From assembly GCA_000004985.1 (NCBI GenBank), contig GG738858.1: DNA of 64,000 nucleotides; one strand, 5' to 3'. A model generated the notes under the pieces. That model made no database searches, was not told the DNA's origin, and was given only the letters and a program-made list of their open reading frames with translations. Positions 7,701-57,563 of the stretch are shown one piece after another. A program made the position numbers and the translations under genes. Position 1 is the first letter of the stretch; the number at the start of each line of letters is the position of its first letter. This stretch comes from Naegleria gruberi (taxonomy: Eukaryota).

Positions 7701-8076
7701 TTTTTACAGTTTTAGGCGCGAACAATCCAACGAACCCTAAAATTGCTTGGGAAGATTTGCAAACCGTCGACAGAGATTTTGCTCTTTTTTTTCTTATGAA
7801 ACGATTGTCACTAAACATTATTTAGAAAGCATTAGAAAAGCTTTCAAAATTACTAGAATTGAAACTAGAGACTGATTTAAGGTTGGCGTATTGCCTCAAC
7901 ACTCAAATATTCAATGTTTTCCAATAAGAATTGTCTTTCAATTTGGATCTAAGATATCTCACCCTCATGATCTTGGAAATTGTACAGGTTCCCTTTTCCA
8001 AACACGCTCATCAAATATAATAAATAATAATAAAAAATAGCTCTAACAGAGTACGAGGAGAATTTTAGAGAAGAAA

Positions 8077-9110
8077 ATGGGTAATGTCGTTGCTTCGTAT
8101 GTGTTTGCTCCACCAAAACCTACCTATGATGAATCATATCCTTATCCTGTTACATTCTTGACTACAAAGTCAAAGAAGATGATTCCTTGTTATTTCATGA
8201 AGGCTAACAAGGATACAACAACGACAATTATCTATTCTCACGGTAATGCTGCAGATATTGGTGCGATGGTATGTTTATTATTTAGTAGTAACTAATTTTG
8301 AAATGGAATATAATAGTATGATTTTTTGGTTGTTTTAAGAGATCATTTGAATGGTAGGTTATGACGATGATTGGATAATATATAATGATGGAATAATATT
8401 ATTCAGTTAATGTATTGCATTATGAATATGTTGGATATGGTCTTGCAAATCAATACCAACCTTCGGAAAGTGGTACGTAGTTTCAACTGAAATGAACTTG
8501 ATGTACTAACCTTGTCACAACAGACACCTATGAAAGTGCTGAAGCTGCTTATGAGTTTTTGACAAAAGCACAAAATATTCCTCCTAAGGATATTGTAATT
8601 TTCGGAACATCCGTTGGCAGTGGGCCATCATGCTACCTAGCAAGTAAATATCCAGTGAGAGGATTAATTTTGGAATGTCGTAAGTAATTGTGATTTATTT
8701 TGTTTTATTTAATGTCAATATTAAGCATTCGTTTCGTAAGTATTAAGATGAATTATCAATGCCAATTTATAATTAATAGTATTTGCCGTATTGTATCAAC
8801 ATCTGTATTTTTGAGGCCAGTGGACATGTTTGTTAATGTTAATAGAATTCCTAATGTAAATGCTCCTGTAATTAGTAAGTTTATTGGAATTCAGTAATAT
8901 CTAATACAAGAAGTATTCCATGGTACTAAAGATGATGTTGTACCTTATGAACATGGTAAAACATTATTTGAAAATGTACAAAAAAAGTATCAATATAAGT
9001 TTATTACTTTGGAAGGAGGATCTCATCATGATATCATTGAAAGATTGACCCTTAAGACATATATTCAAACATTGAAAACCTATCTTCTCAGTCTGAGTGT
9101 TGACAAGTAA
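8077..9110 (+). CDS. ABHD17-like alpha/beta-hydrolase (putative depalmitoylase). Proposed exons: 8077..8287, 8407..8472, 8524..8679, a 10-nt micro-exon at 8726..8735, 8780..8874 and 8911..9110.
   Basis: Conserved blocks match human ABHD17: YSHGNAADIGAM, NVLHYEYVGYGLANQYQPSES, DTYESAEAAYEFL...IVIFGTSVGSGPS (nucleophile elbow GxSxG), CPFVSICRIVSTSVFLRPVDMFVNVNRIPNVNAPVI and VFHGTKDDVVPYEHG...EGGSHHDI. Phases only work with a 10-nt micro-exon and introns of 46, 44 and 36 nt. The exon-1 donor is ambiguous between 8288 and 8269. Confidence 0.55.
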
Positions 9111-9119
9111 ATAAATTAT

Positions 9120-10859
9120 TTATTCTTCATCTGAATTCAAGTTGATATATTTGTCAACCACAGACTCTGAGAATTGTTTTTCAACGAATTCTTTCATTGG
9201 TGACATGAGAGGAGCCTTAACAATAACATTTTTGCCACTGGTTGGGTGTTGGAAAACTATTTTGTACAAATGGAAGAATATCTTATTTACATTAAGGTTT
9301 TTGGACAAACCAATTGGAATTCTATTGTCTACTTGATCAAAGTAAGGGAAATCACCTAACATGGGAATGCCATTTGTTGCCAGATGTGAACGAACTTGTT
9401 GGACTGAACCTGATGGGATGGACACTGTAGCAAGAGCAATCCTGTTATCCTCATTGAGTTCTAGAACATTGACGACTGTCTTGATATTTCTCAATACTTT
9501 AGTGCTAGGAAGTTCATGGGTACCAGCTCTTTGTAATACCTGAACATTATACTCTGGGTGCATTACAAATTTGAGATCTCCTTCTAGGGTAAGAGTGGTA
9601 TTTTTGGTTGCCTTTTCATACTTTTCTTTCAACATTTCATGTTCCTTTCTCATATCCTTCCATCCACCAGATAAATCCAATGTTTCATGTTCCTCTCCCA
9701 TTCCTTCAAGAAGATCTAATTCTTCATCTCCATCCTCTTCCATATCACCATAGTCATCAACAAATAATTCCTCAGCTTCTCCAAGATTAAGATCAGCAAA
9801 CCTGTCAGGTTTCTTTGAAACTCCAAACGAAGATAAAATATCTTTTTCAGAAAGGTTTGATCCCTCTTCATCATCAGTTGTTTCCTCATCTTCATCAAAT
9901 TCCTCCTTCAAATGATAAAAGGGATTCAATTTCTTCTTTAAGCTATTAATGTTTGGCACAGCACAAACTGTTATATATTGTTTTTGTAAGTTGGTATTTG
10001 GCAAAAATTGTTCACTCAATTTTTGGATTGAATGTGAGTTTTTCCCACAAATAAGAACTCCTGACATTTGTGACTCCATTCTGTGGGCTAAATTAATATT
10101 CAGTGGCAATGTGTTTGTGGTTTGCTTGCTCTTTTTCTTTGATTTTTCTTTTTCTTTTTCTTTAGAAAGTACATAATTTCTAATTGCATAAATCATCGTC
10201 TCAGATTCTGGTTTAGATTTGCTTGAATGAACAGCATACCCAACAGGTTTGTTAACTACTATAACATCCTTGTCTTCATACAGTACATGAATAGGAGCTA
10301 TTGGTCCATCATACATTTCAACATGTTTCATTGGTGTGAGATTTGCTGAAAATGGTCTATTCTCTAAATAAATTTCAATTTGGAGTCCTTTCAATATATC
10401 AGTAAATTTAATAAACTTATTATCTTCATTCAATTTCTTATTATTTGCTTTCACATATCCATTTGATAATAAAAATTGAGCATACTCTCTGCTGATAGGT
10501 ACTGTTTGACTCAATAGTTTATCAACTCTAATTTTCTCTGACAAAATTGGTGAATCTTCTTCCACATCCTCTGTATTTAATACTGAAAATTTAACAGATT
10601 TTTTCCTTCCTTCAATCACATCCTTTTCCGAACACTCCAAATACTTGGTTTTTAAAATTGAAAACACATCCACACCCTTCTTTTTCCTTCTCAAAGATGA
10701 CGAATAATTATTAACTCTCCACTCTGATAGTCCATGTTGTAAGAATCGATAATGATTATATTTTTGTACGGTAGTAGTGGTAGCCCATTGTTGATGATGT
10801 TGAAGAGTTGTGTGCCCTCTGAAAAGCTTGAGAGTTTTATGAAGAGACCTTCCTAGCAT
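9120..10859 (-). CDS. RluA-family RNA pseudouridine synthase (RPUSD-like) with an S4-like N-terminal region and an acidic insert; single exon.
   Basis: The 579-aa ORF starts at an ATG. It contains the motifs VVNKPVGYAVH, the catalytic HRMESQMSGVLICGKN (cf. HRLDxxTSG) and YITVCAVPN. Its stop lies 9 nt from the ABHD17 stop. Confidence 0.65.
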   Translation of the reverse strand: MLGRSLHKTLKLFRGHTTLQHHQQWATTTTVQKYNHYRFLQHGLSEWRVNNYSSSLRRKKKGVDVFSILKTKYLECSEKDVIEGRKKSVKFSVLNTEDVEEDSPILSEKIRVDKLLSQTVPISREYAQFLLSNGYVKANNKKLNEDNKFIKFTDILKGLQIEIYLENRPFSANLTPMKHVEMYDGPIAPIHVLYEDKDVIVVNKPVGYAVHSSKSKPESETMIYAIRNYVLSKEKEKEKSKKKSKQTTNTLPLNINLAHRMESQMSGVLICGKNSHSIQKLSEQFLPNTNLQKQYITVCAVPNINSLKKKLNPFYHLKEEFDEDEETTDDEEGSNLSEKDILSSFGVSKKPDRFADLNLGEAEELFVDDYGDMEEDGDEELDLLEGMGEEHETLDLSGGWKDMRKEHEMLKEKYEKATKNTTLTLEGDLKFVMHPEYNVQVLQRAGTHELPSTKVLRNIKTVVNVLELNEDNRIALATVSIPSGSVQQVRSHLATNGIPMLGDFPYFDQVDNRIPIGLSKNLNVNKIFFHLYKIVFQHPTSGKNVIVKAPLMSPMKEFVEKQFSESVVDKYINLNSDEE

Positions 10860-19626: not shown

Positions 19627-21300
19627 TTATGATCTTTCGAAAAGTAATCTTTGACCTCTGACCTTTTCATTAATTTCTCCTTCATCATAAACAAGAGCAC
19701 CATTAACGAAAGTCTTTTTGACTTTTGACTTGAATGTATGACCTTCAAATGGAGACCATCCACACTTGTACAAAATGTTACTCTTATCAACAGTCCATGG
19801 GTCATCTAAATCAACCAAAACCAGATCAGCCTTAAATCCCTTTCTAATAAAACCTCTCTTTTCAATTTGGAAAACAATGGCAGGATTGTGACACATCTTT
19901 TCCACAATCTTTTCCAAGCTAATTTTTCCTTGATGATAAAAATCGAGCATGGCAACTAGGCTGTGTTGAACAAGTGGACCACCAGATGCTGCTTTGAAGT
20001 AACTACTTGTCTTTTCACTGATTGTGTGAGGGGCGTGATCTGTAGCAATGACATCTAAACGATCATCCAATAGAGCTTTCCACAATCCTTCTCTATCTTG
20101 TTCAGTCTTTACAGATGGATTCCATTTAATAAATGCTCCCTTAGTTTCATAATCCTTATCACTGAACCACAAGTGGTGAATACAAACTTCAGATGTAATT
20201 CTCTTCTTTGCAAGAGGTGTTTCATTGTCGAATAAATGAGTTTCTCTTTCAGTGGAAATGTGGAAAATATGCAAACGAGTATTGTGCTTTTTAGCCAAAG
20301 AAACAGCATATGAGGATGAAAGATAACATGCTTCAGCACTTCTAATATCTGGATGGCATCTAATTGGAACATCTTCACCATACTTTTCCTTATGAATTTT
20401 AGAATTTTCACGAATTGTCTTTTCATCTTCACAGTGAGCAGCAATCAATAATTTAGTTTTAGAAAAGATATCATCCAATACCTTAGGATCATCCACTAAC
20501 ATATTTCCAGTACTACTTCCCAAGAATAACTTAATTCCAGCAACATTTCTACCATTGGTCTTTAAAATTTCATCCAAATTTGTCAAAGTACCTCCAAGCA
20601 TGAATGAATAATTAATTAGTGACGAATTCTGTGCAATTTGGAATTTTTGCTCTAATAATTCTTGTGTGGTAGTTTGAGGATTAGTATTTGGTTGTTCAAT
20701 AAATGTTGTGACACCTCCAGCAGCTGCAGCTCTAGATTCAGTAAAGATATTAGCTTTGTGAGTCAATCCAGGTTCTCGGAAGTGCACTTGATCATCAATT
20801 ACACCAGGAAGTAAATGTAAACCAGTTCCATTAATAAACTTATCATATTCTCGATCTGCCATAATATTACTCAATTTATCTTGGTCATTCTCTTGATGTA
20901 AAATCATTTTAATTTTTTCTCCTTCAATAAGTACTGATCCTAAGAACATTTCATTATCATTCACAATAGTAGCATTATAAATTAAAGTTTTAGTCCTATC
21001 TCTATTTGAAACACTATCCAATCTCATATATAATCTAACAAGAACAGCAATAACTACAAAGTACAATGGTACTTTGAGCCAAGCAGGTCTTTTGTCCTTT
21101 CTCCTTCTCGTTGTAGAAGTTGTTGTCGATTCCGAAGCATCTTCTCCCTTATTCCCCTGAGAACGTCTATTTTTCAATACATTGTCTGCAACAGTGGTGA
21201 AACTTGCCTTCTCATCCTTCTCGTCTCCAGTGTTGTTGGATGATGATGAGGTTATCTTCTTATCGGTCATTTTTTTCTTCTTTCTTTTCAAAACCTTCAT
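19627..21300 (-). CDS. Membrane-anchored cyclic amidohydrolase (allantoinase/dihydroorotase/dihydropyrimidinase superfamily).
   Basis: The 557-aa ORF starts at ATG 21300 and has a basic N-terminus followed by a TM segment (LYFVVIAVLVRLY). Metal-binding motifs are GVIDDQVHFREPG, ESRAAAAGGVTT, a carboxylated-lysine region and VIATDHAPH. Its stop lies 9 nt from the XRCC1 stop. Confidence 0.6.
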   Translation of the reverse strand: MKVLKRKKKKMTDKKITSSSSNNTGDEKDEKASFTTVADNVLKNRRSQGNKGEDASESTTTSTTRRRKDKRPAWLKVPLYFVVIAVLVRLYMRLDSVSNRDRTKTLIYNATIVNDNEMFLGSVLIEGEKIKMILHQENDQDKLSNIMADREYDKFINGTGLHLLPGVIDDQVHFREPGLTHKANIFTESRAAAAGGVTTFIEQPNTNPQTTTQELLEQKFQIAQNSSLINYSFMLGGTLTNLDEILKTNGRNVAGIKLFLGSSTGNMLVDDPKVLDDIFSKTKLLIAAHCEDEKTIRENSKIHKEKYGEDVPIRCHPDIRSAEACYLSSSYAVSLAKKHNTRLHIFHISTERETHLFDNETPLAKKRITSEVCIHHLWFSDKDYETKGAFIKWNPSVKTEQDREGLWKALLDDRLDVIATDHAPHTISEKTSSYFKAASGGPLVQHSLVAMLDFYHQGKISLEKIVEKMCHNPAIVFQIEKRGFIRKGFKADLVLVDLDDPWTVDKSNILYKCGWSPFEGHTFKSKVKKTFVNGALVYDEGEINEKVRGQRLLFERS

Positions 21301-21422
21301 ACAAAATTTGAGTAAGCCTAGTAACCCTGACCAATTGAGTTGGTGGGTACTTGTAAAAAAGACATATTATTTCTTTATGGCTTGCAATATGAGGCATCTC
21401 TCAAAAGTTTAATTCTATAATA

Positions 21423-22214
21423 ATGAAAATTAAATTAAAATTGAAAAAAATGTTTCTTCTGGATGGAGTGCCTTCCATTGATCAATACAAGGAGGGTTTA
21501 CCGACTGGTTGTGAGGCCACAGCTGCTGCACAGGCTTTACAATATTTGGGAGTGAAAGTGAGTGCAATGCAAGTGGTGCAAATGCTCAAGAGAGAACCAT
21601 TCATGTTTTCTTTCGGAAATACAATTGGAAATGATGAAAATAAATTGAATAGATTTGGTGGAAATCCGAATAGAGCATTTGTTGGTGATCCATTGAGTGC
21701 ATCTGTTGGAATGGGGTAATTATTTGATGATATTTAAAGCTTAGGTATTTTACAATAATTATTCACATTGGAAAGAGTTTATGAAAAACCAGTGAGAGAG
21801 TTGGTGAATGGAATGTTTATTCCAATGATGATGAAAAGACCAATTGATGATAGACAAATTATTGGAGTTAAAGAATTGTCTCAATCATCGCTTGATTATA
21901 TACTTGATTATTTGGAAAGAACCAAAGTACCGATTGTTATTTGGACAACTCTGAAACAAAGAGAGCCATTCTTTGTGGAAGAAGAAGTGTGGTATGATTA
22001 TTTAGATAGAAATTGTATCATTAAATGGAAGAGTCCAGAACATTGTGTCACTTTGGTCGGATTCACAAATGAAAATGTCATTGTCAATGATCCAGATACA
22101 GGCAAACAAGAACATTATGATAGGAAGATATTCGAGAAGAGATTTATTGAGATGGGCTCCATGGCCTTCTCTTTTACAATTGATGAGGGAGATAAGTGTC
22201 TTAATGATTATTGA
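21423..22214 (+). CDS. Peptidase C39-like (BtrH/YvpB-type, PF13529-like) cysteine peptidase domain protein. Two exons: 21423..21715 and 21776..22214.
   Basis: Exon 1 encodes ...GLPTGCEATAAAQALQYLGVKVS (catalytic Cys context) ...SASVGMG. A 60-nt GTAATT...AAAG intron follows in phase 2. Exon 2 encodes VYEKPVRELVNG...EHCVTLVGFTNENVIVNDPDTG, which supplies the catalytic His. Coding GC is markedly higher, about 40-45% in exon 1, than in neighbouring genes. Confidence 0.5.
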
Positions 22215-22395
22215 GATTAAATTTACGCATACATCTCAGTGCCACTGATCATGCAGTGATTCTCAATATCAACGGTGTTATCTTTATCCAAATTCACGGA
22301 CTAATAAGGAGATAGATTAACAAGGACCAAATACTTCCCGCCAAATAAACTACCGTTAATCGCTACAAACAGTTTAAAAAATTCAATAATAAAAA

Positions 22396-23553
22396 ATGTC
22401 TCTAAACAAAAAGAATGTTTCCTATCCGGTAGGCAACAGATCACTATCAGCTTTAGCCTCTAATCGTAAATTTTTCGGAAAACATCTTGATGAGAATGGA
22501 AATATGCCATCAGCTGGGGCAAAAACTAGGCCGAGAGATCTTAATGATACGCTGTACAGAACAAATCCCAACCTTAAAAAGAGTGATTTTTCTGCAGAAA
22601 AGATACAAAAACTTCAAATCAGAAAGAGAGAATCTAGGATAACAGAACGACCAATACAAGAGGAATTGGAGCACAAAAAACAAGTTTCCGAGAAGTTTAG
22701 CTACTTTGTAAATACACGACCTTGCTTCTCTTATTCATTTCACCCTGACGTCAATGAATATGCCAAACAAAATGAGACAATTTTCTCAACAAGTATTGGA
22801 ATGAATTGGAAGATCAATGAAAAATCGAGGCATGAATTGGAAAATTCAAAACCAAAACATATCGAGGATTGTAGAAAAGAAAAGGAACTAGAGAGAATGT
22901 TTTACTTTAAATCACTTGACAAAGTACCTAAGAGAGATGAATCTGAACATCAGAATAAGGTGAAGATTGATAGATTTACCACATCTCCTGATAGGAAAGA
23001 AGTGGCGGCAAGAAAACAGTCAACTAGAGATAATTTATTACACCATAGATACTTACCTATCAATGGACCAACCAACGTAACATCAACCGAAGGCAGATTT
23101 AACGACTCCCTTAAACAATTCTTCCCTTTCGAACCAAAACTTAGATACGGTAAAACAGAGTTCAAAGACACTGATAATATTCATATACCAGAAGAAACGT
23201 CCCCTCTATTTTGTTCTGAAGCTGATAGATTAGTCAACAAAATAGTCGATGCAGATATATTCCAAAACGACGTGTATGCTGATTTAAGGAGGAAAAACAT
23301 GGCAATTACGAAATCAAGAGCAGATAGAAGAAGACAAAGCGAGCATGATGTGCGAGAGAATGCTCAGAAATTGGAAGATTTGAGTGAGCAGAAGAAACTA
23401 GCAAGGGAATCTGCCATTCGAACACTGAAAGAAAAGTACATTCAGGTTGTCCATGATAATGACCCAGCTCATGGGTATAACTTTTGTTCTGGTGAAAGAC
23501 ACGAACTAGTACAATCGAAAAATATTGGTTATCAAAGTTGTTTTCAAGAATAA
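22396..23553 (+). CDS. Hypothetical K/R/E-rich protein with no recognisable domain, intronless and with atypical codon usage.
   Basis: The 385-aa ORF follows an ATG and an A-rich leader. Codons such as CCG, ACG, CTG, GGG and GCG occur that are rare in flanking genes, and the region's GC is about 35-40%. Confidence 0.4.
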   Translation: MSLNKKNVSYPVGNRSLSALASNRKFFGKHLDENGNMPSAGAKTRPRDLNDTLYRTNPNLKKSDFSAEKIQKLQIRKRESRITERPIQEELEHKKQVSEKFSYFVNTRPCFSYSFHPDVNEYAKQNETIFSTSIGMNWKINEKSRHELENSKPKHIEDCRKEKELERMFYFKSLDKVPKRDESEHQNKVKIDRFTTSPDRKEVAARKQSTRDNLLHHRYLPINGPTNVTSTEGRFNDSLKQFFPFEPKLRYGKTEFKDTDNIHIPEETSPLFCSEADRLVNKIVDADIFQNDVYADLRRKNMAITKSRADRRRQSEHDVRENAQKLEDLSEQKKLARESAIRTLKEKYIQVVHDNDPAHGYNFCSGERHELVQSKNIGYQSCFQE

Positions 23554-24033
23554 GTTTAACAATGTTTGGCAATACGACTGAACTGATCATCTAAATATTG
23601 TGTGTTAACTTCGCACATCATCTATGGCTCAACAACTTTGTAAATAAAAATGAGCAATCCAATGTTTTACTGTATCTGAAATGAAAATAATATTTCAGTT
23701 TACCTTTCTGCTGGTTTAAAAGAAACGAATTCATCACCATGAAATCACTGTTATTTTTGTTGTATTCATTCATCTGGTATTTCATTTGTTGTTCCAATTC
23801 CTCACTTGCCAATTTCTATACAACCTAATTGTATCCTGGGATTCCAAAGCTTGTTAATAAAAGTGCTTTTCCTTGTTCTTCCGGAAATCTGCATCACTTG
23901 GACGACCAAATTAATAATTCACTGAGGTGATTTTCAAGTTCCAAACCATTTTAGAAGCAGTATTTACCAGCTACGATTACTGTAGTCTATTTCACTTGAA
24001 AAATCAACACTCATACAGCATTAAAAAAACACC

Positions 24034-25383
24034 ATGAAGCGTTCCTTAATATCCAGTACTTACCTCGAAGGAGTATCATCAGCTGTATTGTTGCTGTTGG
24101 TTTCTTTCACATGTTGTTTATTTGCTACAACACTTAATGCAGCTGTTTTGCCAAATAGACAATACAAAGTTGATGCGCAAGGATCTAGAAGGGCTCCCTT
24201 CTCTGCAACACATAATGATTATGCTCAACCAATTACTCCAGTAGTCAGTACCTTTGAATACACACCCATGGCTATGATTTATCACAGTGGATGGAACAGG
24301 TTCTTGTTGGGTACTCTTAAACTTGAGCCTCATCCAGGATTTGCCACTGAGACCTTCTTTTCTGGAATGATCACTGTTGACGCTCTAACTGGAAAGGTTG
24401 CGAATGGGGGATTTCAATTGGAGAAGGGATATTCTCTTTCGGCTCCTGTCTTGTTGAGTACTAAGGGGTATTTATATGTTCCTTTATGTTTTAAGTATTG
24501 CTTCGTGAGCATTGTTAATACTTTGGATTGGTCCCTTTCTTGGTCCAATGTTGAATCACATGCAACTTCAGTTCTTGTTGAAAGTGTCAAATGTTACATT
24601 TATCTTCAACAAAAGAGTATGAAATGTTTAGATATGGATAATCTTGCCACAGTCAAGTGGACAATAACTATTCCTGAATATAGTTATAGTACTGGTTCCC
24701 TTTTGTTGGTGAATGAAAATAATGAGGAAATTGTCTATTATAACGGTGTAAAGAGTATTTCAAAAGTGTCTCCAAAACAAGCCAAAATTCTTACAACAGT
24801 TGAACCTGGATATGTTCAATCAATAGCACATACTGGATTATCATCTTTTGTGGTAGCAATTGTTAAAACACAAGATGGTTTAGATGCATTCGGTATTGTT
24901 CATGTTGATTCTGGAAAATCCAGTTTTTCAAATGGTATTGGAACACTAACAACATATTTATACCCATCAGTAACATGTATTGAAAATCCTCAACCTAATA
25001 CTTACATTTTCAAATCGTTAGCTTATTTGACAGTTCCTGTCAATGGATCACCTACTAAAATACTGTACCACTTCTCAACAACTGTAACCATTGCAAAGGA
25101 TGGTGTTGTTTCGATTGCAACACCACAATTATTCAAACTTAATGAATTGAAATCTAAAACAGTTTCATTTGCATCTGTTTCAAAAGATAATTGTCAAGTT
25201 GTTTTATACAGAAATGGAATGTATAGCAAGTTGGATCTTCACTCTGGAACCTTTATGATGAATGTTGGATCTGTAACTAAAGGCGAGTCATTTAATGATT
25301 TAATGTTAGGTGCTGATAATGGAAGAGTTTATACCATTGTTGGAAATGCTAAAACATATCTTGAATCTATTATATTAAACTAG
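24034..25383 (+). CDS. Hypothetical secreted protein, S/T/V-rich with a beta-rich composition; intronless with atypical codon usage.
   Basis: The 449-aa ORF starts at an ATG. A signal-peptide-like segment (AVLLLLVSFTCCLFATTLNAAV) sits at the N-terminus. No TM segment or recognisable domain follows. Composition is GC-richer than the host genes. Confidence 0.4.
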   Translation: MKRSLISSTYLEGVSSAVLLLLVSFTCCLFATTLNAAVLPNRQYKVDAQGSRRAPFSATHNDYAQPITPVVSTFEYTPMAMIYHSGWNRFLLGTLKLEPHPGFATETFFSGMITVDALTGKVANGGFQLEKGYSLSAPVLLSTKGYLYVPLCFKYCFVSIVNTLDWSLSWSNVESHATSVLVESVKCYIYLQQKSMKCLDMDNLATVKWTITIPEYSYSTGSLLLVNENNEEIVYYNGVKSISKVSPKQAKILTTVEPGYVQSIAHTGLSSFVVAIVKTQDGLDAFGIVHVDSGKSSFSNGIGTLTTYLYPSVTCIENPQPNTYIFKSLAYLTVPVNGSPTKILYHFSTTVTIAKDGVVSIATPQLFKLNELKSKTVSFASVSKDNCQVVLYRNGMYSKLDLHSGTFMMNVGSVTKGESFNDLMLGADNGRVYTIVGNAKTYLESIILN

Positions 25384-25514
25384 TCAATAAACCCAACAAT
25401 AATTAGTTGATTTCATTCATAAAATATTTCCCACATCATGATCCTTGATTGAAAATGATAATAATACTAATAGGAATGTTCATCAACATGTTGTGATTTG
25501 TAATAATAATAAAA

Positions 25515-28500
25515 ATGAGCAATCATCAACAAATAACAACCACAACGACAACCAATTTTACTTTACCACCACTCCCACCTTCATTAATTCCAGCCAGATA
25601 TGAATTTAAAATCACTGGACAATTTCCATCACAATTCAACAATATTCAATCACAATGCTATCATCCATCACAACAAGTTTTAATATTGGGAGGAAGTAAT
25701 GGCAATTTATATTTTGTTGGTGGTGATGCTCATTATTATATTACGTTATCGGATGAATATTCAATTGAAAATATTCAAAATGATGAACAATTTCCGATCA
25801 TTTATTGTCTTTGTAAAAATCATCAAAATTCAAAATCAATTTTAATATCCTATGATTATTTAAAGAAGCAAATTGTCAATCAAGTACATTTTAATGATCA
25901 TCAAAATGTAACAAGTATCAAATATTACAAAGGTTATTTATTAATAACAACAATTGAATTTAAAAATAATATTTATTATCCATATGTAAAGTACATGTCA
26001 ACAAGTAATTTCAAATTTATTCAATCAATCTCGTTATTACATCCAATTTTCAACGCTCCTAATATTATACCACCTTCTAATTTATTAATTAATTGTGTTG
26101 AACCTCATCCGACATATGATCATGTCATTTCAGTTGGTTATTCGAATGGTGAAACTGTTATTTACTATATTTATCATGTGCAGAATACTAACAATAATTC
26201 AATTTCAACAAATCTTAATTGTATTGTTATTCCTTCACAATTTTCAGTAACCAGTTTGAATTGGCATGCTCCGAATATTATAATTTGTGGATATTCAAAT
26301 GGTTCATTTACTTTATACGAAATTAATCATCCTCAATTTACATTTTCTCTCTATTATGAAATGAATATGTTGAAGGGATGTACAAATTTCATAACTTCTT
26401 ACAATCAATTCATCATTTTTGGATTAGGATCAGATACTACAAATGCAGATTCTGGAATATATTATTTGAAAATGAATTATGAAGTAAGAAATATTGAATT
26501 TATTAGACATGTATGGTGTGATCAGAAAAGTATTGAAAATATTACATTGTTAAAATCAGTCTTTGATAATCCAAATTCAAACTCTTTAATGGCTAGTGTG
26601 ATTTATGGAGAAAATAGAAATGTGCTTGTTTTGGATTTATTTGAAAAGATGATTTATCCACAAAAAGAACTTCAATTATTCAATTTGGAAAAGTATTCTG
26701 TACCAACCCCATTCTACTCTACAAAAGATTTGATTTGTAATAATAAGGAATTTATTGTACTGAAAACTTCTGGGATGGATCTCTCAAATTTGGTATATAA
26801 CACTGTTCTTAATAATTTCAATCAAGAACAGTACAGAAGGAATATGCTTGAGTATTATTTAAGACCTGTCAATAGATGGAATATACTTGGCATGAAATAT
26901 ACTCAATACAGAGTCGATATTAATGTCGATAAAGATAATTACATTTTGGTAAAGCTTTCAGATCAAGCTTTAGGTAGTGCAGTCGAGCTGTATTTGTGCA
27001 ATCCATATTTTAACGATATCAGATATATTTATACTATTGGTAATCAAGCAAGTTACAAAACTATGTGCAAATGGAGCGATAGTGTAATTATTTTGGCATC
27101 TATGGATGGAAATTTAGATTTCTTGCATATTCCATCAGCAACTATTTTTACACATGACATTACTGAAAAATCTCCAACTGTAGACAACTCGACTAATATT
27201 TCAGAAGCTCAGGGAAACAACTTCCAAGGCATAATTGCACAAGTGGCCAAGTATAACTTTAACGTTTTAAAATATTCTAATGATAATCCAATTATCCAGC
27301 TAGTTCCTATTCAAGTAATTAATCAACTTTTAATTGCTTACCAAGATGGTACTATTAAGATAGTATCACTCTCTACAAGTGACATTTCATCTGATCAAAT
27401 TATTGAAAATGAGTTTGACAAACATTTTGGAAGTATTATTTTTGAACTCAATCCATCAGACATGAAGAGTTCACATCTCTTTGTAAAATCCATTTTACCA
27501 AAGAAAGATGTAGTTTCACATATTGAATGCTCGATATATAGAGGTAATCTCTATGCTTTCCTTGGTTTTGCCAGTGGGAAGGTAATGCTCATTCAACTGT
27601 ACGATCTAGACTATATGACCAGAAATTATCACAAACTGAGCAAATATATTCATGAGGCAAGATGGAAAGATTTAGCTGATCACATATGTCCATTCGTTAT
27701 TTATGAAAATTCAGCAAACAATTTTGGAAAAGTTATTGATATTTACACTGTTAATGACATTTATAATGAATATAATATTTCTAAAATGGTAGATGAAAAG
27801 TATTTACCACCAATGTTGAGAAGTGAATACGTACCTAATTCAATTATTAACTCTCCAAATGGACCAATTTGTTATACTATTCATAGCACTTCACTGACGA
27901 GTGTATTTGGAACTGTGAAAAATAATATGATTGCCTTCCCAATCAATAGCGCAAGTCCTCTTACCATTTTATTTCAACTCAAGAAAACTCTTCCAATATC
28001 TTTTAATTTTGTTTTGGATATTCTGGATATCAAGTTTGAAACTCTATCAAAGATTGAAGAAATGGCCAACTATAGAATTATTGTCAATGGTGTTCCATTT
28101 GAGTTTGATATCAACTCGAATCATAAACTGGTAGATACAAGGCAAGTGGCTGTTGTTGTAACAGGTGAAGAGTATCGTGTTTATGTCAGAAATGAAACCA
28201 AGTTTGAATGTATTGGATCTGCACCATCAGGTTACAATTGTGTTCAGGATCAGTACATTACAAAGATGAATTTCAAAGTACTTTCACATAGTATCCATGA
28301 CAAAGAGGCCGAGTTTTATGAAAACCAGTTCATGAATAGTAAGATGTACAATTTATGTGATGTGGATTATTTGTGTGAATATATTGATAGTGTGGAAATT
28401 TACAATAATTTATCATTCTCAGATCTTCAAAATTCTAGAATCAAACAACCAAACATTGTTGGATACATTTCCAAAGCGGGAATTCCTCCTCTTGGTCAAT

Positions 28501-29570
28501 CCCATGGCTACACTCGATCAAAATTCATCATGGTTGTCAAGGAAAAGGGTATTGAAGAATATGTTCTCTCAAAACCAATGATTAGTTTGAAAAAGTTCTC
28601 CATTAAGGAAGGAAGAAAGTATAATCATAACAATATAATATCATCTAGCTCGTTAGAATACGTTCGTTCTAATAATCAAAGTTTGATATTATTGGACAAT
28701 CAAAATAATTTAATGATGTTTAGCTTGAAACCTTCATCTTCACAATCTAAATCCATAGACAAGATTTTCACACAAAAAATATCAAACCTCCCAATATCAA
28801 GTCAACCATTCAAAATATCAACCTTTGACAGTGGAAGAGACCTCCTCATTTATAATAATGACCATGTCGTTTATGGAACTTTGTTTGATTCAAAAAGCCA
28901 TAAGAGTACAGATATTTTGGAACCTATTATCTACACTATAGATTATAAGCCACCAACTAAAGCAATTGGAGAATCAATTGTTGGATTTTTCAAGAGCTTT
29001 ACCAAGTCTACACCTTCAGATAAGGATGTCAATGAAACATTTTGGAAGATTTGTACACAACTTCAGAGAGAAGATCTCAATCTTGTCAAACAATTGGTTG
29101 TGAATAATATTGTTCCTTCTCAACCTTCTAACAATTCAGATTTTGATGATAATGAAAAGACCATTATTTCATCCTTCCTCTCAAAAGAATTGGAGCTCAA
29201 GAACAAACCAATTGTAAAGCCACTTCCTCAACCAACTACCACAAGTAGTGCAACAAATGCATCAACCAGTAGTTCAAGTAACTTGAATAATCTCTATACT
29301 AGAACCAATAGAGAATTATTGTTCGGAGATGATGAGAACGATGATAATATCAAAATTACATCATCCAATTCATCTATGAAACGATCTGAACTAAACAACA
29401 GAATTGAGGAAACTAAACTTCAAATGAGTGAGAATTTAAGAAAACTAAATGAAAGAGAGGAAAAATTGAGAGAAATTAATGAAAAAACCAGTGAAATGTC
29501 TGGAATGGCCTCTTCATTTGCAGCCAATGCACAAAAATTGAATCAGAGATCAGGATTTTTCGGTTTTTAA
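25515..29570 (+). CDS. Lgl/tomosyn (STXBP5/Sro7)-family protein: WD40-repeat regions followed by a C-terminal R-SNARE-like coiled-coil motif; single exon.
   Basis: The 1351-aa ORF has beta-propeller-like repeats through the N-terminal 1000 aa. Its C-terminus, RSELNNRIEETKLQMSENLRKLNEREEKLREINEKTSEMSGMASSFAANAQKLNQR, resembles a synaptobrevin-like SNARE motif (R-SNARE layer context). Confidence 0.55.
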   Translation: MSNHQQITTTTTTNFTLPPLPPSLIPARYEFKITGQFPSQFNNIQSQCYHPSQQVLILGGSNGNLYFVGGDAHYYITLSDEYSIENIQNDEQFPIIYCLCKNHQNSKSILISYDYLKKQIVNQVHFNDHQNVTSIKYYKGYLLITTIEFKNNIYYPYVKYMSTSNFKFIQSISLLHPIFNAPNIIPPSNLLINCVEPHPTYDHVISVGYSNGETVIYYIYHVQNTNNNSISTNLNCIVIPSQFSVTSLNWHAPNIIICGYSNGSFTLYEINHPQFTFSLYYEMNMLKGCTNFITSYNQFIIFGLGSDTTNADSGIYYLKMNYEVRNIEFIRHVWCDQKSIENITLLKSVFDNPNSNSLMASVIYGENRNVLVLDLFEKMIYPQKELQLFNLEKYSVPTPFYSTKDLICNNKEFIVLKTSGMDLSNLVYNTVLNNFNQEQYRRNMLEYYLRPVNRWNILGMKYTQYRVDINVDKDNYILVKLSDQALGSAVELYLCNPYFNDIRYIYTIGNQASYKTMCKWSDSVIILASMDGNLDFLHIPSATIFTHDITEKSPTVDNSTNISEAQGNNFQGIIAQVAKYNFNVLKYSNDNPIIQLVPIQVINQLLIAYQDGTIKIVSLSTSDISSDQIIENEFDKHFGSIIFELNPSDMKSSHLFVKSILPKKDVVSHIECSIYRGNLYAFLGFASGKVMLIQLYDLDYMTRNYHKLSKYIHEARWKDLADHICPFVIYENSANNFGKVIDIYTVNDIYNEYNISKMVDEKYLPPMLRSEYVPNSIINSPNGPICYTIHSTSLTSVFGTVKNNMIAFPINSASPLTILFQLKKTLPISFNFVLDILDIKFETLSKIEEMANYRIIVNGVPFEFDINSNHKLVDTRQVAVVVTGEEYRVYVRNETKFECIGSAPSGYNCVQDQYITKMNFKVLSHSIHDKEAEFYENQFMNSKMYNLCDVDYLCEYIDSVEIYNNLSFSDLQNSRIKQPNIVGYISKAGIPPLGQSHGYTRSKFIMVVKEKGIEEYVLSKPMISLKKFSIKEGRKYNHNNIISSSSLEYVRSNNQSLILLDNQNNLMMFSLKPSSSQSKSIDKIFTQKISNLPISSQPFKISTFDSGRDLLIYNNDHVVYGTLFDSKSHKSTDILEPIIYTIDYKPPTKAIGESIVGFFKSFTKSTPSDKDVNETFWKICTQLQREDLNLVKQLVVNNIVPSQPSNNSDFDDNEKTIISSFLSKELELKNKPIVKPLPQPTTTSSATNASTSSSSNLNNLYTRTNRELLFGDDENDDNIKITSSNSSMKRSELNNRIEETKLQMSENLRKLNEREEKLREINEKTSEMSGMASSFAANAQKLNQRSGFFGF

Positions 29571-34085: not shown

Positions 34086-34126
34086 TAAACAAAACGATGT
34101 CAAAATTTCATGGCTCGCCACGTTTA

Positions 34127-34197
34127 CCGTCTCGGGAGGAATCGAACCTCCGTCAATGGATTCAAAGTCCACTATGCTACCATTACACCACGAGACG
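34127..34197 (-). tRNA. tRNA-Gln (anticodon TTG).
   Basis: The minus-strand sequence CGTCTCG TG GTGT AATGGTA GCAT A GTGGA CTTTGAA TCCAT TGAC GGAGG TTCGATT CCTCC CGAGACG G folds as a cloverleaf. The 7-bp acceptor stem is perfect, the T arm is GGAGG/CCTCC with a TTCGATT loop, and the anticodon loop is CT-TTG-AA. Confidence 0.8.
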
Positions 34198-34563
34198 AGC
34201 ACATCAATTAAATACCCTTAATGTTCTTATTATTAAGTATACTTTAACACTAAGCCCAATTTAAAGGAGCAATTCCGAAAGAAGAAATATTCAACATATC
34301 AGATACCGACAAACATCAAGGTTTTGCCTATGCATATAAGACACCTCAGAGAGATAGACAAGTCATTCTTAATGCAGCACAATATTTCGGAGGAATTTTA
34401 GAGCTATTAGATAAGTATTTGATGAGGAAATTGTTCTTCAATGCATCAAGACAACACCCATAGCATTAGAATTTGCAAGTGAAACTCTGAGAAATAATCC
34501 AGAAATTGAGAGCAGCTTACAATTTAGCAAAAGGTGGAATTTACTCATGAACCAAAAAACAGA

Positions 34564-34637
34564 TACCGACAATGGGGCTCGAACCCACGACCCCAGGATT
34601 AGAAGTCCTGTGCTCTATCCAACTGAGCTATGACGGC
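34564..34637 (-). tRNA. tRNA-Arg (anticodon TCT).
   Basis: The minus-strand sequence GCCGTCA TA GCTC AGTTGGATA GAGC A CAGGA CTTCTAA TCCTG GGGTC GTGGG TTCGAGC CCCAT TGTCGGT A folds as a tRNA. The D and anticodon stems are perfect. The acceptor stem has one T-T mismatch and one G-U pair. Confidence 0.7.
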
Positions 34638-51415: not shown

Positions 51416-52658
51416 TTTCCGAATTTAATTAATTTCCAAATTTAATTCCACAATCACGTAAGTTACACTGAAGTTTTCAATTTTTCAATAATTCAATAAT
51501 TCAATATTGAATATTAATTTCCTTAGTTAATTGGTCAACTAATTCTGTTGCCTTTGGAGTCACTTCACAGTCAATTCACTCAATTCCAACACATAACTCT
51601 TTCATCTTCATGTTCATCTGTTGCAACAACAGAAACTACAGTCATTTCCCTTTGTACAGTTCCCATTGTTTCAATATTTGTTAGTTTCTGTGTAATTTGC
51701 TTTACTGTAAATAATCAAATAAATCAAATTCAATTAAAATTAAATATATTTCATAATTTTACAAAATAATTAGGTCAAAAATCTATCGTAAATTCTGTAA
51801 TAATTATTCCAATATATTTACATAATTATTCCATATTAAATTCATAATGTTAATACAATTATTACGTAATTTAATTAATAATTACCTCGTAATAATATCC
51901 GTAATAAATCCAATATTTTTGCCTGGAAATGACAAATCCGGTTGTGAATTGCTGTATAATTATATGATAATTCCGAAGAGATTATGATGTGATTGTGTAT
52001 TTTTTTTGGTTTTTATTACGGGAAAATTACGTCAAAATTATGGTGTATTCTGGTTTGATTATGAGCAAATTATGTTAAAATTAAATTAATGATTATGGCA
52101 AAACCGTCTCCTAGGAGGCATGGCTGGTTACGTGTTGGAATGCTTAAAGGTAGTGGAGTCATTATTAAGTGAGTGCGTACTCACTTAATTGACTGATGAA
52201 ATTGAACGGACGCATGAATATTATTTTGAAGATGATTGTTATTGTAAACTACCTTTCTTTACCGAATGTTATTGAATTGGATGTTTATTAGCAATGAATA
52301 TCAGTTCTCTTTATTAAAAAAGATCATTTCATTATTCGAACTTAATCTCAAAAATGTTCTTTCTTAAGGGAGTAATTATAAAAGTATGCACTTGGCATTT
52401 CATCCGCCAATTTGTACTCATTATCCGTTCAAATGTCTGCGCCACGCTGAAAGTTGTGAATTGGTATTAATTTTTACAATTATGGATTGGCTGATAATCT
52501 CAATTTTACAAAATTGTTACAATTTTATTCAAATTTTACTCAAATTCGCCCAATTTTAAATTGAAAATAAACACTCAATGCAGTTTATGTTAAATTATTC
52601 TCATAATGAATTTTAATTTCTTGTTGAAAAATAAAATTTTTGTTTTTGCTTTAAAAAA

Positions 52659-55600
52659 ATGACCAAGAAGCGTGGTGCCACTTCATCATCAACAACTTCA
52701 GCAGCAGCAACAAGTCAACAATCTGCTACCAACAAGTCTGCTACAGCAACAACAACAACTCAAACATTACCTTCTAAATATGAAGCACTATTCCGTAATC
52801 TTATTAAATTTTATGAAGAAAAACAATATCAAACAGCCTTGTCCTATGCTGATAATATTTTGAGAGATTATCCACAACATGGTGATACAATGGCTATGAA
52901 GGCTTTATTAACAAGATATCTTAAAGAACAAGAAATTAACAAGCGTGTTGAATTTAATACTAATTTTTATTATAATAAGAATTCTACTACAAATTCTAGT
53001 AGTACTACTTCTAACGGTACTAGTAATAGTAATAATAGTATTGGTGATGAATTAATGTTATATGACAAGACATATAAAAAAGATGCTTATAATATGGTTA
53101 AAAAGGCTTTGGAATATGTTAATAACAAGTCATTTATTTGTTGGCATGTTTATGGATTAATGTATAAGGAAGATTTTAAAATTTCTCAAGCAATTACTTG
53201 TTTCCAAAATTCATTAAAATTTAATCCAACTAATGAAATTCAAGCTTGGCGTGAATTGAGTAATGTTCAAATTCATTCAAGAGATTATAAAGGAGCGATT
53301 GAAAGTAGAAGAAAGTTAATTGAATTAAAACCAGGTATTGGTGCATTTTGGTTAGGTTATGCTGTTGCTCAACATTTAAGTGGAAATTTAACAGGCGCTA
53401 TTCAAACTATTGATAAATACATGACAGCACTTTTTGAACAAAGTAATAAGGATAGTAAGAATTACAAATTTGAAAAATCAGAATTATTACTTTATTTAGC
53501 ACAAATGATGTATGAAAATGGTCAATATAAGGAATGTGCTGATTCTTTATTAGCTAATACTAAATTTTTAGCTGATGAACTTTCAACTTTGGAATTACTT
53601 GCTGATTGTTATATTAAATTAAATCAATTAGATCATGCTAAAAAGATTGCTTTACAATTAATTAAGAAGAATTCAGAAGATTATTCTTATTATGGTAAAT
53701 ATCAATTAGCTTGTGGATTTAATACAAGTGAAAATAGATTCCTCCTCGATGATTCTAAATCTAATAATAATCAACAAGAAGAAGTTGCATTGAAATTATT
53801 TGAAATGTATACAACAAGTGAAGATTTGAAGGAATTTAGAGAAAAATCACCAGTTCTTAAAATGATTATTCTTTCTCTCTGTCCACCATATAACAATTCA
53901 AATGATGAAAGATTTAAAAAGGAATTGAATTCATTTGTTGAACCATATTTTACCAAGACTATTCCATCACTTTTTAAAACTTTGAAATCAATTTATCAAA
54001 AACAAACTTGTAAAATTGCACTCATTGAACAAGCCATGTTAGAAAGAATGAATCAAGAAGAATCCAATACTACTTCTAATACTTCTAATACTTCTACTAC
54101 TACTACTAACAAAGATCCAACCATTTTACTTTGGATTTATGTTTATTTATCACAACATTATGATGCCATTCATCAATATGATAAGGCTCTTGAATATGTT
54201 AATAGAGCTATTGAACATACTCCAACTCTTATTGAATTGTACATGCTCAAGGCTAAATTTTACAAACATTTATTTAATACTGAACAAGCTGCTTTATGTA
54301 TGGAACAAGCACGTTTAATGGATTTATCTGATCGTTATTTAAATACTAAAGCAACCAAATATTGGACAAGACATGATGAAATTGTTAAGGCTGATGAAAT
54401 GATTGGTATCTTTGCTAAACATCCAAAAGATCCTGCAACAAAGAAGGAAGAAGAAGCAAAAGAAAAGGAAAAGGCCAAACAACAACAAGAACAACCTCAA
54501 CAAACTCAACAAACTCAAACATCATCTTCATCACAACAAGATCTTGAAAAGAAGGAAGAAGAAGAAAAGGATTCTAATTTAATTCCAATTGAAGATGGTG
54601 CTATTTATCATCGTAATAATGTTCATGATATGCAATGTTTATGGTTTGAAAATGAATGTGGTGATGCTCATTATAGAAAGGGAGAATTATCAATGGCTGT
54701 TCGTAGATATTATTATACAGTTCAACATTTTATGGAAATGTATGAAGATCAATTTGATTTCCATACTTATTCAATTAGAAAGATGACACTTAGATCATAT
54801 ATTGAAATGATGAAATATTATGACAAGTTATATTCACAATATTTCTATTTCCATTCAGTTTGTGGATTATTGAATGTTTATTTATTATTATTAAAACAAA
54901 AAGAAGAAAAGGAAGGAATTACATTTGATTCACCAACTGAATATGGTAATTTTAAGAATGATTACATTTCAAATTTCCAAAATATTGATTTGAGAAAAGA
55001 TGAAGATTTGAATGGATTATATCTTTCTTCTAAAATTAATTTATTTGATGAATGTACTAAATATTTGAAACAATTAGAAGAATATCATTCAAATGAAATT
55101 ATTACACATATTTATGGTGTAACTATTTATTTAAAGAGTAGAAAATATTTACTTGCTAGTAAAGCATTAAAAAAAGCATTGGAATTATCACCATCTGATT
55201 ATAGAGCTCATTTATTGAAATTCCAATATTTAAAAACTATTAATTCTATTGATCAAGCTGATTCACTCTATAAATTATTACAAATGGATTATCAAAAAAT
55301 TACTTTAGGTAAATCATTAAATGATTTAAATGAAGAATGGAAAAATCAATTTATTACCAATAATAATAATAATAATAATAATGGAGGTGATATTCTCAAT
55401 GTATTATCCTATTTATCTGTTAAACATTTAATTAATGATAACAATAATAACAATAATACTGATAATAATGATAATGAATTATTAACAAGTATTGTTGAAA
55501 AATCATCATTACGTTCATGTTATATTGCTCATGCCATGTTAACAAAGAAGAGAATTACAAATAGACCATACAAGAAGGAACAAGATTACAAGATTAATAC

Positions 55601-55688
55601 TCATTTAGATTTTACAATTCAAAATCAAGATTTAATTGTTAATCAATTAGTTCAAAAGATTGAATCTGTTTTTAATATTAAATTGTAA
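52659..55688 (+). CDS. naa15: N-alpha-acetyltransferase 15 (NatA auxiliary subunit, TPR-repeat protein), single exon.
   Basis: The 1009-aa ORF reads YEALFRNLIKFYEEKQYQTALSYADNILRDYPQHGDTMAMKALL...SFICWHVYGLMYKEDFKISQAITCFQNSLKFNP...AWRELSNVQIHSRD...QFDFHTYSIRKMTLRSYIEMMKY and is colinear with human NAA15. Confidence 0.85.
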   Translation: MTKKRGATSSSTTSAAATSQQSATNKSATATTTTQTLPSKYEALFRNLIKFYEEKQYQTALSYADNILRDYPQHGDTMAMKALLTRYLKEQEINKRVEFNTNFYYNKNSTTNSSSTTSNGTSNSNNSIGDELMLYDKTYKKDAYNMVKKALEYVNNKSFICWHVYGLMYKEDFKISQAITCFQNSLKFNPTNEIQAWRELSNVQIHSRDYKGAIESRRKLIELKPGIGAFWLGYAVAQHLSGNLTGAIQTIDKYMTALFEQSNKDSKNYKFEKSELLLYLAQMMYENGQYKECADSLLANTKFLADELSTLELLADCYIKLNQLDHAKKIALQLIKKNSEDYSYYGKYQLACGFNTSENRFLLDDSKSNNNQQEEVALKLFEMYTTSEDLKEFREKSPVLKMIILSLCPPYNNSNDERFKKELNSFVEPYFTKTIPSLFKTLKSIYQKQTCKIALIEQAMLERMNQEESNTTSNTSNTSTTTTNKDPTILLWIYVYLSQHYDAIHQYDKALEYVNRAIEHTPTLIELYMLKAKFYKHLFNTEQAALCMEQARLMDLSDRYLNTKATKYWTRHDEIVKADEMIGIFAKHPKDPATKKEEEAKEKEKAKQQQEQPQQTQQTQTSSSSQQDLEKKEEEEKDSNLIPIEDGAIYHRNNVHDMQCLWFENECGDAHYRKGELSMAVRRYYYTVQHFMEMYEDQFDFHTYSIRKMTLRSYIEMMKYYDKLYSQYFYFHSVCGLLNVYLLLLKQKEEKEGITFDSPTEYGNFKNDYISNFQNIDLRKDEDLNGLYLSSKINLFDECTKYLKQLEEYHSNEIITHIYGVTIYLKSRKYLLASKALKKALELSPSDYRAHLLKFQYLKTINSIDQADSLYKLLQMDYQKITLGKSLNDLNEEWKNQFITNNNNNNNNGGDILNVLSYLSVKHLINDNNNNNNTDNNDNELLTSIVEKSSLRSCYIAHAMLTKKRITNRPYKKEQDYKINTHLDFTIQNQDLIVNQLVQKIESVFNIKL

Positions 55689-56169: not shown

Positions 56170-56618
56170 GCAGAATAAAATTATTTATTAAATATAATAG
56201 AGTAATATTAGTAACATATTATAATAATAGATGATGAAAAGTTAATGAGGAATTTATTCTGAATGAATCATGCTATTGGATGATCACATTTCCTTAGGCC
56301 TTTTTATATTTTCATTATTATTATGCTTTCCATAAGTGCGTACGTATAATCGTATGTATGCATTAATAATATTCTCATCAAATAATGGACTCCATTATTT
56401 CATAAAATCAAGAACTCTTCAGCCATGGAGTACATCATCGGTTGTGTGATTCTGATTCTTTAAAAAAAATAACACTATTATCACAACTAAACTGCTGCTA
56501 TTATAACAACTGTTCATTTATCTATTCCGATCCAAGTGTACATTTTTCATTATCACTATCATTCAATAATAATAACATAATCTGTGTGTTTAAACAATAT
56601 AAAAATATTAATATAAAA

Positions 56619-57563
56619 ATGCAAGAACAATTATTTTCTGAAAAATTAAGTCACATTAAAAACATTATAATAGTATTATCAGGTAAAGGAGGAGTTGGTA
56701 AATCAACAGTTTCATGTCAATTAGCATTAACATTAGCAAATATGAAATATAAAGTTGGTATTTTAGATGTTGATATTTGTGGTCCATCTGTACCTGGTAT
56801 TTTAGGTGTTTCAAATAAGGAAATTGTTCAATCACAAGATGGTTGGTTACCTGTTGATATTGATATTATTCATAATAATAATATTAATCAATTAAATCAA
56901 TTAAATCAATTAAATGATAATACTAATCAATCTAATCAATTAAATGATAATATTAATCAATTAAATGATAATACAAATCAATTAAATGATATTAATAATA
57001 ATAACAATATTACTAAAAATGGAGAATTAAAATGTATGAGTATTGGATTTTTATTAAAAAATAAAGATGATGCAGTGATATGGAGAGGACCTAAAAAGAA
57101 TTCCATGATTAAACAATTTATTCAAGATGTTTGTTGGAAAGAATTAGATTTTCTAATTATAGATACACCACCTGGTACATCAGATGAACATATTACACTT
57201 GCAGAATTATTAAGAGATTTTAAAAATATTAATTCAATTATTGTAACAACTCCACAAAATGTTTCAACTATTGATGTTAGTAGAGAAATTAATTTTTGTA
57301 AAAAGTTAAATATTCCAATTAGAGGTATTATTGAAAATATGAGTGGTTATGTTTGTCCATGTTGTAAAGAAATTACTTTTATTTTTGGTAGTGGTGGTGG
57401 TCAAAAATTATCAAATGAATATAATATTCCATTTTTAGGAAGTATTCCTATTGAACCTGAATTGGCAAATGCTGAAGATAATGGTATTAATTATATTAAG
57501 AATTTTTCAAATTCTGTTACATCTATGCAATTTACAAATATTGTTAATATTATTTTAAATTAA
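56619..57563 (+). CDS. nubp2: Cytosolic Fe-S cluster assembly factor NUBP2/Cfd1 (Mrp/NBP35 P-loop ATPase) with an N/Q-rich repeat insertion.
   Basis: The ATG at 56619 is inside the longer TTG-initiated ORF 56442... The sequence IIIVLSGKGGVGKSTVSCQLALTLA...VGILDVDICGPSVP...CMSIGFLL...AVIWRGPKKNSMIKQF...DFLIIDTPPGTSDEH...ENMSGYVCPCCKEITFIFGSGGG matches human NUBP2. An inserted (NQLND)n tract lies between conserved blocks. Confidence 0.8.
   Translation: MQEQLFSEKLSHIKNIIIVLSGKGGVGKSTVSCQLALTLANMKYKVGILDVDICGPSVPGILGVSNKEIVQSQDGWLPVDIDIIHNNNINQLNQLNQLNDNTNQSNQLNDNINQLNDNTNQLNDINNNNNITKNGELKCMSIGFLLKNKDDAVIWRGPKKNSMIKQFIQDVCWKELDFLIIDTPPGTSDEHITLAELLRDFKNINSIIVTTPQNVSTIDVSREINFCKKLNIPIRGIIENMSGYVCPCCKEITFIFGSGGGQKLSNEYNIPFLGSIPIEPELANAEDNGINYIKNFSNSVTSMQFTNIVNIILN
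56880..56995. repeat. Imperfect tandem repeat of about 15-18 bp (AATCAATTAAATGATAAT units) encoding an NQLND repeat inside the NUBP2 coding sequence.
   Basis: Repeated copies of aatcaattaaat / gataatactaatcaa are visible directly in the sequence. Confidence 0.6.

Follow-up and report, generated by a model that had tools for sequence, protein, structure and literature searches.

A C39-like peptidase gene of apparent bacterial ancestry, carrying a predicted spliceosomal intron, lies among ordinary host genes in Naegleria gruberi

In Naegleria gruberi, the interval between a divergently transcribed amidohydrolase gene and a tomosyn/Lgl-like gene (contig GG738858.1, assembly GCA_000004985.1) holds three genes. 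The first encodes a C39-like peptidase and is split into two exons by a short predicted intron; the other two, referred to here as genes 2 and 3, are uninterrupted and lie downstream of it (Table 1; positions are those of the whole 64,000-nucleotide stretch that was analysed, hereafter the window). A first-pass annotation had read these genes and the spacers around them as one compositionally distinct 4-kb island of foreign origin. Our analysis makes it very likely that there is no such island and that the three genes are unrelated to one another and normally embedded: the C39-like gene would descend from a single old acquisition from a Bacillota-like bacterium, and genes 2 and 3 would be vertically inherited.

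Excision of the intron fuses the two open reading frames (ORFs) of the C39-like gene in frame to give a product of 243 amino acids. This product matched the Pfam family Peptidase_C39_2 (PF13529; E 3.2e-19, 70.3 bits against a cut-off of 24) over residues 15–204, corresponding to profile positions 2–142 of 143. Both features thus agree with the first-pass annotation, which had described a C39-like gene with a 60-nt GT...AG intron. The motifs that it had singled out, a Cys within PTGCEATAAAQAL and a His within EHCVTLVGF, are also present. Gln21, Cys30, His187 and Asp203 did not vary among the 31 homologues that were aligned, and the N. gruberi protein keeps the invariant columns, 18 in all. The best sequence match in the PDB (E 7e-15, residues 9–232) was 3ERV from Bacillus anthracis, described as a putative C39-like peptidase. 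An AlphaFold2 (AF2) model was built on the orthologue from Naegleria lovaniensis, which is 49–53% identical to the N. gruberi protein; it reached a predicted local distance difference test score (pLDDT) of 89, and its top Foldseek match was again 3ERV (E 3e-12, template modelling (TM) score 0.83), followed at greater distance by cathepsin B, falcipain, staphopain and CtaG. Judged from sequence and model together, the product is predicted to be a papain-fold (clan CA) thiol enzyme with an intact Gln/Cys/His/Asp set. Membership in the canonical Peptidase_C39 family (PF03412), the double-glycine leader peptidase of bacteriocin ABC exporters, was considered and rejected. The protein shares a distant, clan-level resemblance with that family, but its score was below the threshold (19.3 bits against a cut-off of 22; E 0.001, around the His region), NCBIfam ABC-peptidase models gave 11–15 bits against cut-offs of 500–853, and the protein stands alone at 243 amino acids with no fusion to an ABC transporter.

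A search of 5.8e9 proteins with the C39-like protein returned 35 matches, among which the only named eukaryotes were N. lovaniensis and Willaertia magna (49% and 45% identity, respectively). The remaining matches were bacterial or metagenomic with at most 40% identity, and the gene for the 40% match sits in a bacterial context (AraC, a two-component system and AcrB). Scanning one genome per prokaryotic species yielded 371 loci. The best 80 of these 371 were all from Bacillota, at 27–38% identity, and included Tumebacillus, Lentibacillus, Virgibacillus, Thalassobacillus, Oceanobacillus, Paenibacillus and Clostridia. Relatives on viral contigs were more distant (23–28% identity). In neighbour-joining (NJ), midpoint-rooted trees of 35 and 82 sequences over ~205 columns, the three amoeba sequences grouped together in 100/100 bootstraps. 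Their clade was embedded among Bacillota and, under midpoint rooting, was sister to a Bacillaceae group. The phylogeny that the first-pass annotation had proposed as a check thus places the domain within bacteria. Together with the finding of no eukaryotic relatives other than vahlkampfiid ones, this upholds the bacterial origin that it had suggested. The GC contents of the three amoeba copies (34.5, 36.3 and 32.0%) each resemble that of the respective host, compared to 38–64% for the bacterial homologues. These comparisons support bacterial ancestry of the C39-like gene, apparently through one old transfer from a Bacillota-like bacterium to an amoeba, with the intron gained afterwards.

The surroundings of the gene in its relatives bear on the age of the transfer. 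The tomosyn/Lgl-like protein of N. gruberi is 52.7% identical over 1373 amino acids to the product of an N. lovaniensis gene located 5.8 kb downstream of C39, an orthologue that has a Synaptobrevin domain. The NatA auxiliary subunit is 61.6% identical over 1028 amino acids to an N. lovaniensis locus (6827–9802), and the ParA/NUBP-type ATPase is 63–68% identical to another (26–571) and 54% identical over 308 amino acids to a W. magna locus (628–1395). In N. lovaniensis the C39-like gene lies directly downstream of the NatA-auxiliary gene and ~9.4 kb from NUBP/ParA; in W. magna, NUBP lies 8.6 kb from C39. C39, tomosyn, NatA-auxiliary and NUBP are linked in each of the three species, with variation in order, orientation, spacing and intervening genes; the spacing is ~35 kb in N. 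gruberi and ~10 kb in the other two. The varied order and intervening genes indicate local inversions and insertions. Synteny of the island across relatives had been named in the first-pass annotation as a finding that would refute it, and for the C39-like gene such synteny was found in N. lovaniensis as well as in W. magna. Since the C39-like gene is syntenic in these relatives, we place its acquisition before the split between Naegleria and Willaertia and do not regard it as a recent insertion. The presence of the gene in at least two genera, its conserved linkage and its host-like composition would also fit an ancestral eukaryotic gene that was inherited vertically and lost in nearly all other eukaryotes. 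We consider this very unlikely, because no further eukaryotic homologue was found among the matches, the three sequences lie inside a large Bacillota radiation (30–38% identity) rather than outside it, and very many independent losses would be needed.

The intron itself can be placed in the same history. An in-frame TAA is present at the donor site, so that an unspliced mRNA would give a truncated protein. In the N. lovaniensis orthologue the corresponding Gly codon (GM|G|VY) is likewise interrupted in phase 2 by a GT..AG intron, 134 nt long, and the W. magna gene is a single 762-nt ORF with no interruption. The segment is accordingly predicted, from the reading frame and the comparison with orthologues, to be a spliceosomal intron. 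Its gain most simply falls in the Naegleria stem lineage, and it would be cleanly datable because the gene must have arrived intronless, the Willaertia copy is intronless, and two deeply diverged Naegleria species share its position and phase. The sequence of events would then be as follows: a common ancestor of Naegleria and Willaertia took the gene once from a Bacillota-like bacterium; its composition became host-like while its chromosomal neighbourhood was kept; and the phase-2 intron was subsequently gained in the Naegleria stem, persisting in N. gruberi and N. lovaniensis.

The reference model of the gene, XP_002679234.1 (NAEGRDRAFT_65491), is a protein of 133 amino acids that begins at Met111 within exon 2 and is consequently without exon 1 and the predicted nucleophile Cys30. 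Because this model covers exon 2 only and an in-frame TAA separates the two ORFs, one might suppose that the gene is a decaying pseudogene and that the annotated 133 amino acids reflect a real truncation. There is only a slim chance of this: excising the canonical 60-nt GT..AG segment re-establishes the reading frame precisely at the site of the N. lovaniensis intron, the four catalytic residues are retained along with the other invariant columns, and in tblastn searches exon 1 was 48% identical to the N. lovaniensis orthologue and 52% identical to that of W. magna. The predicted two-exon model of 243 amino acids, backed by these orthologues, improves on XP_002679234.1.

Table 1. Coordinates of the C39-like gene, its neighbours, the synteny anchors and the tRNA genes in the window
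Feature	Coordinates	Strand	Remarks
C39-like gene, exon 1	21423..21715	+	Residues 1–97 plus 2 nt of Gly98; holds Gln21 (codon read from sequence, 21483-21485) and Cys30 (21510-21512)
C39-like gene, intron (predicted)	21716..21775	+	60 nt, GTAATT...AAAG, phase 2 in the Gly98 codon, 21.7% GC
C39-like gene, exon 2	21776..22214	+	Holds His187 (codon read from sequence, 22041-22043), Asp203 (22089-22091) and the stop codon
Gene 2	22396..23553	+	Intronless, 385 amino acids, basic/acidic
Gene 3	24034..25383	+	Intronless, 449 amino acids, all-beta, N-terminal hydrophobic segment resembling a signal peptide
Amidohydrolase gene, left flank	19627..21300	-	Divergent; Pfam Amidohydro_1, E 1.5e-19; 34.9% GC
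Tomosyn/Lgl-like gene, right flank and synteny anchor	25515..29570	+	30.4% GC
NatA auxiliary-subunit gene, synteny anchor	52635..55685	+	Sequence identity to N. lovaniensis locus
ParA/NUBP-type ATPase gene, synteny anchor	56406..57560	+	Identity to N. lovaniensis and W. magna loci
tRNA-Gln(TTG)	34126-34198	-	~370 nt from tRNA-Arg(TCT)
tRNA-Arg(TCT)	34564-34637	-	~370 nt from tRNA-Gln(TTG)

Genes 2 and 3 have a different history. Each product is 100% identical to a predicted protein of N. gruberi encoded on a 782,252-bp scaffold, which identifies the window as nuclear DNA of this amoeboflagellate, and both genes are intronless, as the first-pass annotation had stated. It had also found no recognisable homology for either and had suggested a foreign origin. 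Heterolobosean orthologues contradict both statements. The product of gene 2 is 46% identical to Naegleria fowleri FDP41_012880 and 45% identical to N. lovaniensis C9374_005495 over 98–99% of its length; these orthologues are full-length and intronless, one environmental relative was found as well, and several motifs are strongly conserved. The neighbourhood of gene 2 differs in N. fowleri and N. lovaniensis, where glycosyltransferase and pseudouridine synthase genes lie on either side. For gene 3, the N. gruberi predicted protein was the sole match in a word-indexed search, and phmmer, run exhaustively, added W. magna KAL9657105.1 (31% identity over ~400 amino acids; E 7.6e-43 library-wide, 7e-51 pairwise). 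A further phmmer match, P0042 (E 2.7e-5), was dismissed as a repetitive metagenomic protein. No homologue of gene 3 was found by exhaustive phmmer in the N. fowleri and N. lovaniensis proteomes, which reflects either loss in that branch or divergence past detection. With the Pfam cut-off relaxed to E 10, genes 2 and 3 still had no match, and profile searches of the PDB returned nothing usable for them. The AF2 model of the gene 3 product, a low-confidence one (pLDDT 45), consisted entirely of strands, and its Foldseek matches were beta-propellers only, which at TM scores of 0.16–0.24 for such a model are a hint at most. Gene 3 probably encodes a secreted beta-propeller-like protein. On the strength of their orthologues, both genes appear to be vertically inherited, fast-evolving and lineage-restricted amoeba genes rather than foreign ones, gene 2 being Naegleria-wide and gene 3 restricted to Heterolobosea and shared with Willaertia. 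The 480-nt spacer between them (23554–24033) was also inspected for a minus-strand gene; the only candidate, a 64-codon ORF that depends on a TTG start, has a length expected by chance and was rejected.

There is no compositional island at 21.4–25.4 kb. The first-pass annotation had put the GC content of the region at 35–45%; it measured 34.9%, the same as the neighbouring amidohydrolase gene. In 4-kb windows across the whole stretch the median was 31.4% and the maximum 35.4%, which puts the region in the top 4.5%. By gene, GC was 34.5% for the C39-like gene, 36.3% for gene 2 and 35.3% for gene 3, and the internal spacers had 33.1% and 32.7%. In 1-kb bins the 21–25 kb segment ran at 34.7–36.4% and the 16–21 kb flank at 31–36%; in 200-nt bins the region ranged from 30 to 42%, exceeding 40% in one bin only. 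These values belong to a high-GC plateau of 8 kb (17.5–25.5 kb, 34.7–35.4%) that starts in ordinary genes and of which the region is the end. Intergenic DNA had been said to be typically below 15% GC, but when ORFs of at least 120 amino acids are masked, the short gaps in the window are mostly at 21–30% and values below 15% occur only in the AT-rich 38–44 kb segment. The dinucleotide relative-abundance distance of the region from the window average was 0.025, lower than for 96% of the other 4-kb windows, and GC content at third codon positions (GC3) was 0.30, 0.31 and 0.25 for the three genes in order, inside the local range of 0.20–0.41.

The claim that genes 2 and 3 use GC-ending codons rare in their neighbours (CCG, ACG, CTG, GGG and GCG) is weak. 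The frequencies of these codons were 20.6, 26.0 and 13.4 per 1000 in the three genes, compared to 0–18 per 1000 in the other genes of the window, gene 2 being the highest. However, they amount to only 5, 10 and 6 codons, and the per-codon likelihoods under pooled host usage (-0.88, -1.04 and -0.99) fall within the host range of -0.82 to -1.16. Nor did other signals mark a boundary. Counts of sigma-70-like promoters and terminators in the region equalled those in shuffled sequence, flanking repeats were short ones at chance level with no meaningful repeats at the boundaries, the nearest tRNA genes lie at 34.1–34.6 kb, an Rfam scan of 21–26 kb gave no match, and Pfam detected no integrase, transposase or other mobile-element domains. 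A 17-nt exact repeat (23643–23659 and 25508–25524; AATAAAAATGAGCAATC) was judged unimportant, as it consists mostly of the common AATAAAAATG start-codon context. Its copy at 25508 includes the tomosyn/Lgl start codon, and the copy at 23643, in the spacer between genes 2 and 3, heads a 9-codon ORF. The repeat is probably a common A-rich start context with a chance extension.

What speaks for a recent, compositionally foreign island comprising all three genes and their spacers is therefore its high rank in GC, spacers of 33% GC compared to ~23% in typical short gaps, and the count of the five GC-ending codons in gene 2, the highest in the window. Weighed against the early start of the plateau in ordinary genes, the unusually typical dinucleotide signature, the local GC3 values, the orthologues of genes 2 and 3, the synteny of C39 in relatives and the intron that it shares with N. 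lovaniensis, and the absence of flanking repeats, tRNA, integrase and any excess of bacterial promoters or terminators, such an island is extremely improbable. Bacterial contamination or mis-assembly, suggested solely by the overwhelmingly bacterial distribution of the domain family, has a next to negligible probability given a 782,252-bp scaffold with eukaryotic flanking genes, the GT..AG intron with its in-frame stop, the amoeba-like GC content, identities of at most 38% in the scan of bacterial genomes and the recurrence of a syntenic setting in three species whose genomes were assembled independently.

A bigger compositional feature than the supposed island was seen elsewhere in the window, where GC3 shifts at ~37 kb. 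To the left of this position GC3 is 0.20–0.41, and most genes to the right (~37000–59600) have 0.06–0.21, for example 37716–38732 (17.8% GC, GC3 0.11) and 56619–57560 (GC3 0.06); 40556–41904 is an exception (GC3 0.33–0.40). Runs of N total 3131 in the window, with a short gap from 59839 and 61001–64000 wholly N; the terminal block suggests padding or a scaffold end.

The predicted chemistry of the C39-like protein would be that of a thiol hydrolase or transferase acting on a peptide or isopeptide-type amide bond, with Cys30 as the nucleophile, His187 as the base, Asp203 orienting the His and Gln21 contributing the oxyanion hole. Signal peptides are absent from both Naegleria proteins and from the closest Bacillaceae proteins (~200 amino acids); they are present in the W. 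magna protein and in many other bacterial members. Because the Naegleria proteins and their closest Bacillaceae relatives are without signal peptides, we believe that the protein probably acts intracellularly in Naegleria and not as a secreted lysin. One listing of enzymatically active domains assigns Peptidase_C39_2 solely to lysins from phages with Gram-positive hosts (PMC8223927), and by analogy with these endolysins a peptidoglycan stem or a bacterial peptide is a plausible substrate. The neighbourhoods of the closest Bacillaceae homologues contained no conserved operon pointing to a substrate. Literature searches on YvpB and Peptidase_C39_2 found no experimental function, the YvpB matches lying outside titles and abstracts, with contents that were not examined; no paper holding both Naegleria and Peptidase_C39 turned up, and none describing this gene was found.

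Several points weigh against parts of this reading of an old bacterial acquisition. The trees, being distance-based on ~205 columns, single out no exact donor clade, and the sampling of eukaryotes equals the content of the protein databases. The annotated proteome of N. fowleri gave no C39 homologue, which suggests either loss in that species or an unannotated or missed gene. The spacers at ~33% GC are somewhat richer than typical short gaps (21–26%), and content of untranslated regions is the sole explanation that we can offer. The cellular location may differ among amoeba species, because a hydrophobic segment at the N terminus is present in the W. magna protein and missing from the Naegleria ones. 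The biochemical role, finally, is inferential, as no substrate has been demonstrated for any member of the subfamily.

Among known proteins, the N. gruberi protein most resembles the Bacillus subtilis YvpB type and B. anthracis 3ERV, the latter being the best match of the family by both sequence and structure. It shares with them a single domain of ~200–250 amino acids and the LPTGCE, FVGDP, EH and NDP motifs, and differs in being encoded by a eukaryotic, intron-bearing gene, in having no signal peptide and in its low identity to bacterial members (30–38%). BtrH/CtaG transacylases and the C39_2 domains of phage endolysins have a similar papain-like fold and Cys/His chemistry, with CtaG a weaker structural match; unlike them, the amoeba protein has neither a cell-wall-binding domain nor a biosynthetic-cluster context, and its viral homologues are remote, as noted above. 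The W. magna genome paper reported many putative bacterial transfers (PMC6892926), and the words "C39" and "peptidase" are absent from its main text. The C39-like gene resembles the documented Naegleria and Willaertia transfers in being an integrated gene for a bacterial-type enzyme with host-like composition and an intron. In contrast to the transfers linked to amoeba-resistant bacteria that are stressed in that paper, the C39 transfer is taken to be old because it is common to both genera.

The apparent GC and codon island was a product of reading by eye. The composition of the region is typical, so that quantitative controls are needed wherever foreign DNA in the N. gruberi genome is called from composition. 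The C39 transfer is an ordinary ancient horizontal gene transfer, a further case of a known type of event and not a surprising one. The analysis corrects the truncated N. gruberi reference model and adds a well-supported ancient transfer from bacteria to Heterolobosea with a datable post-transfer intron gain, which is of value for studies of horizontal gene transfer and intron evolution in Discoba. For the amoeba itself, we consider it reasonably likely that the locus records such a datable intron gain in the Naegleria stem together with the domestication of a Bacillota thiol hydrolase, which would have been long under selection in a bacterivorous amoeba and may process bacterial peptides or cell-wall stems.

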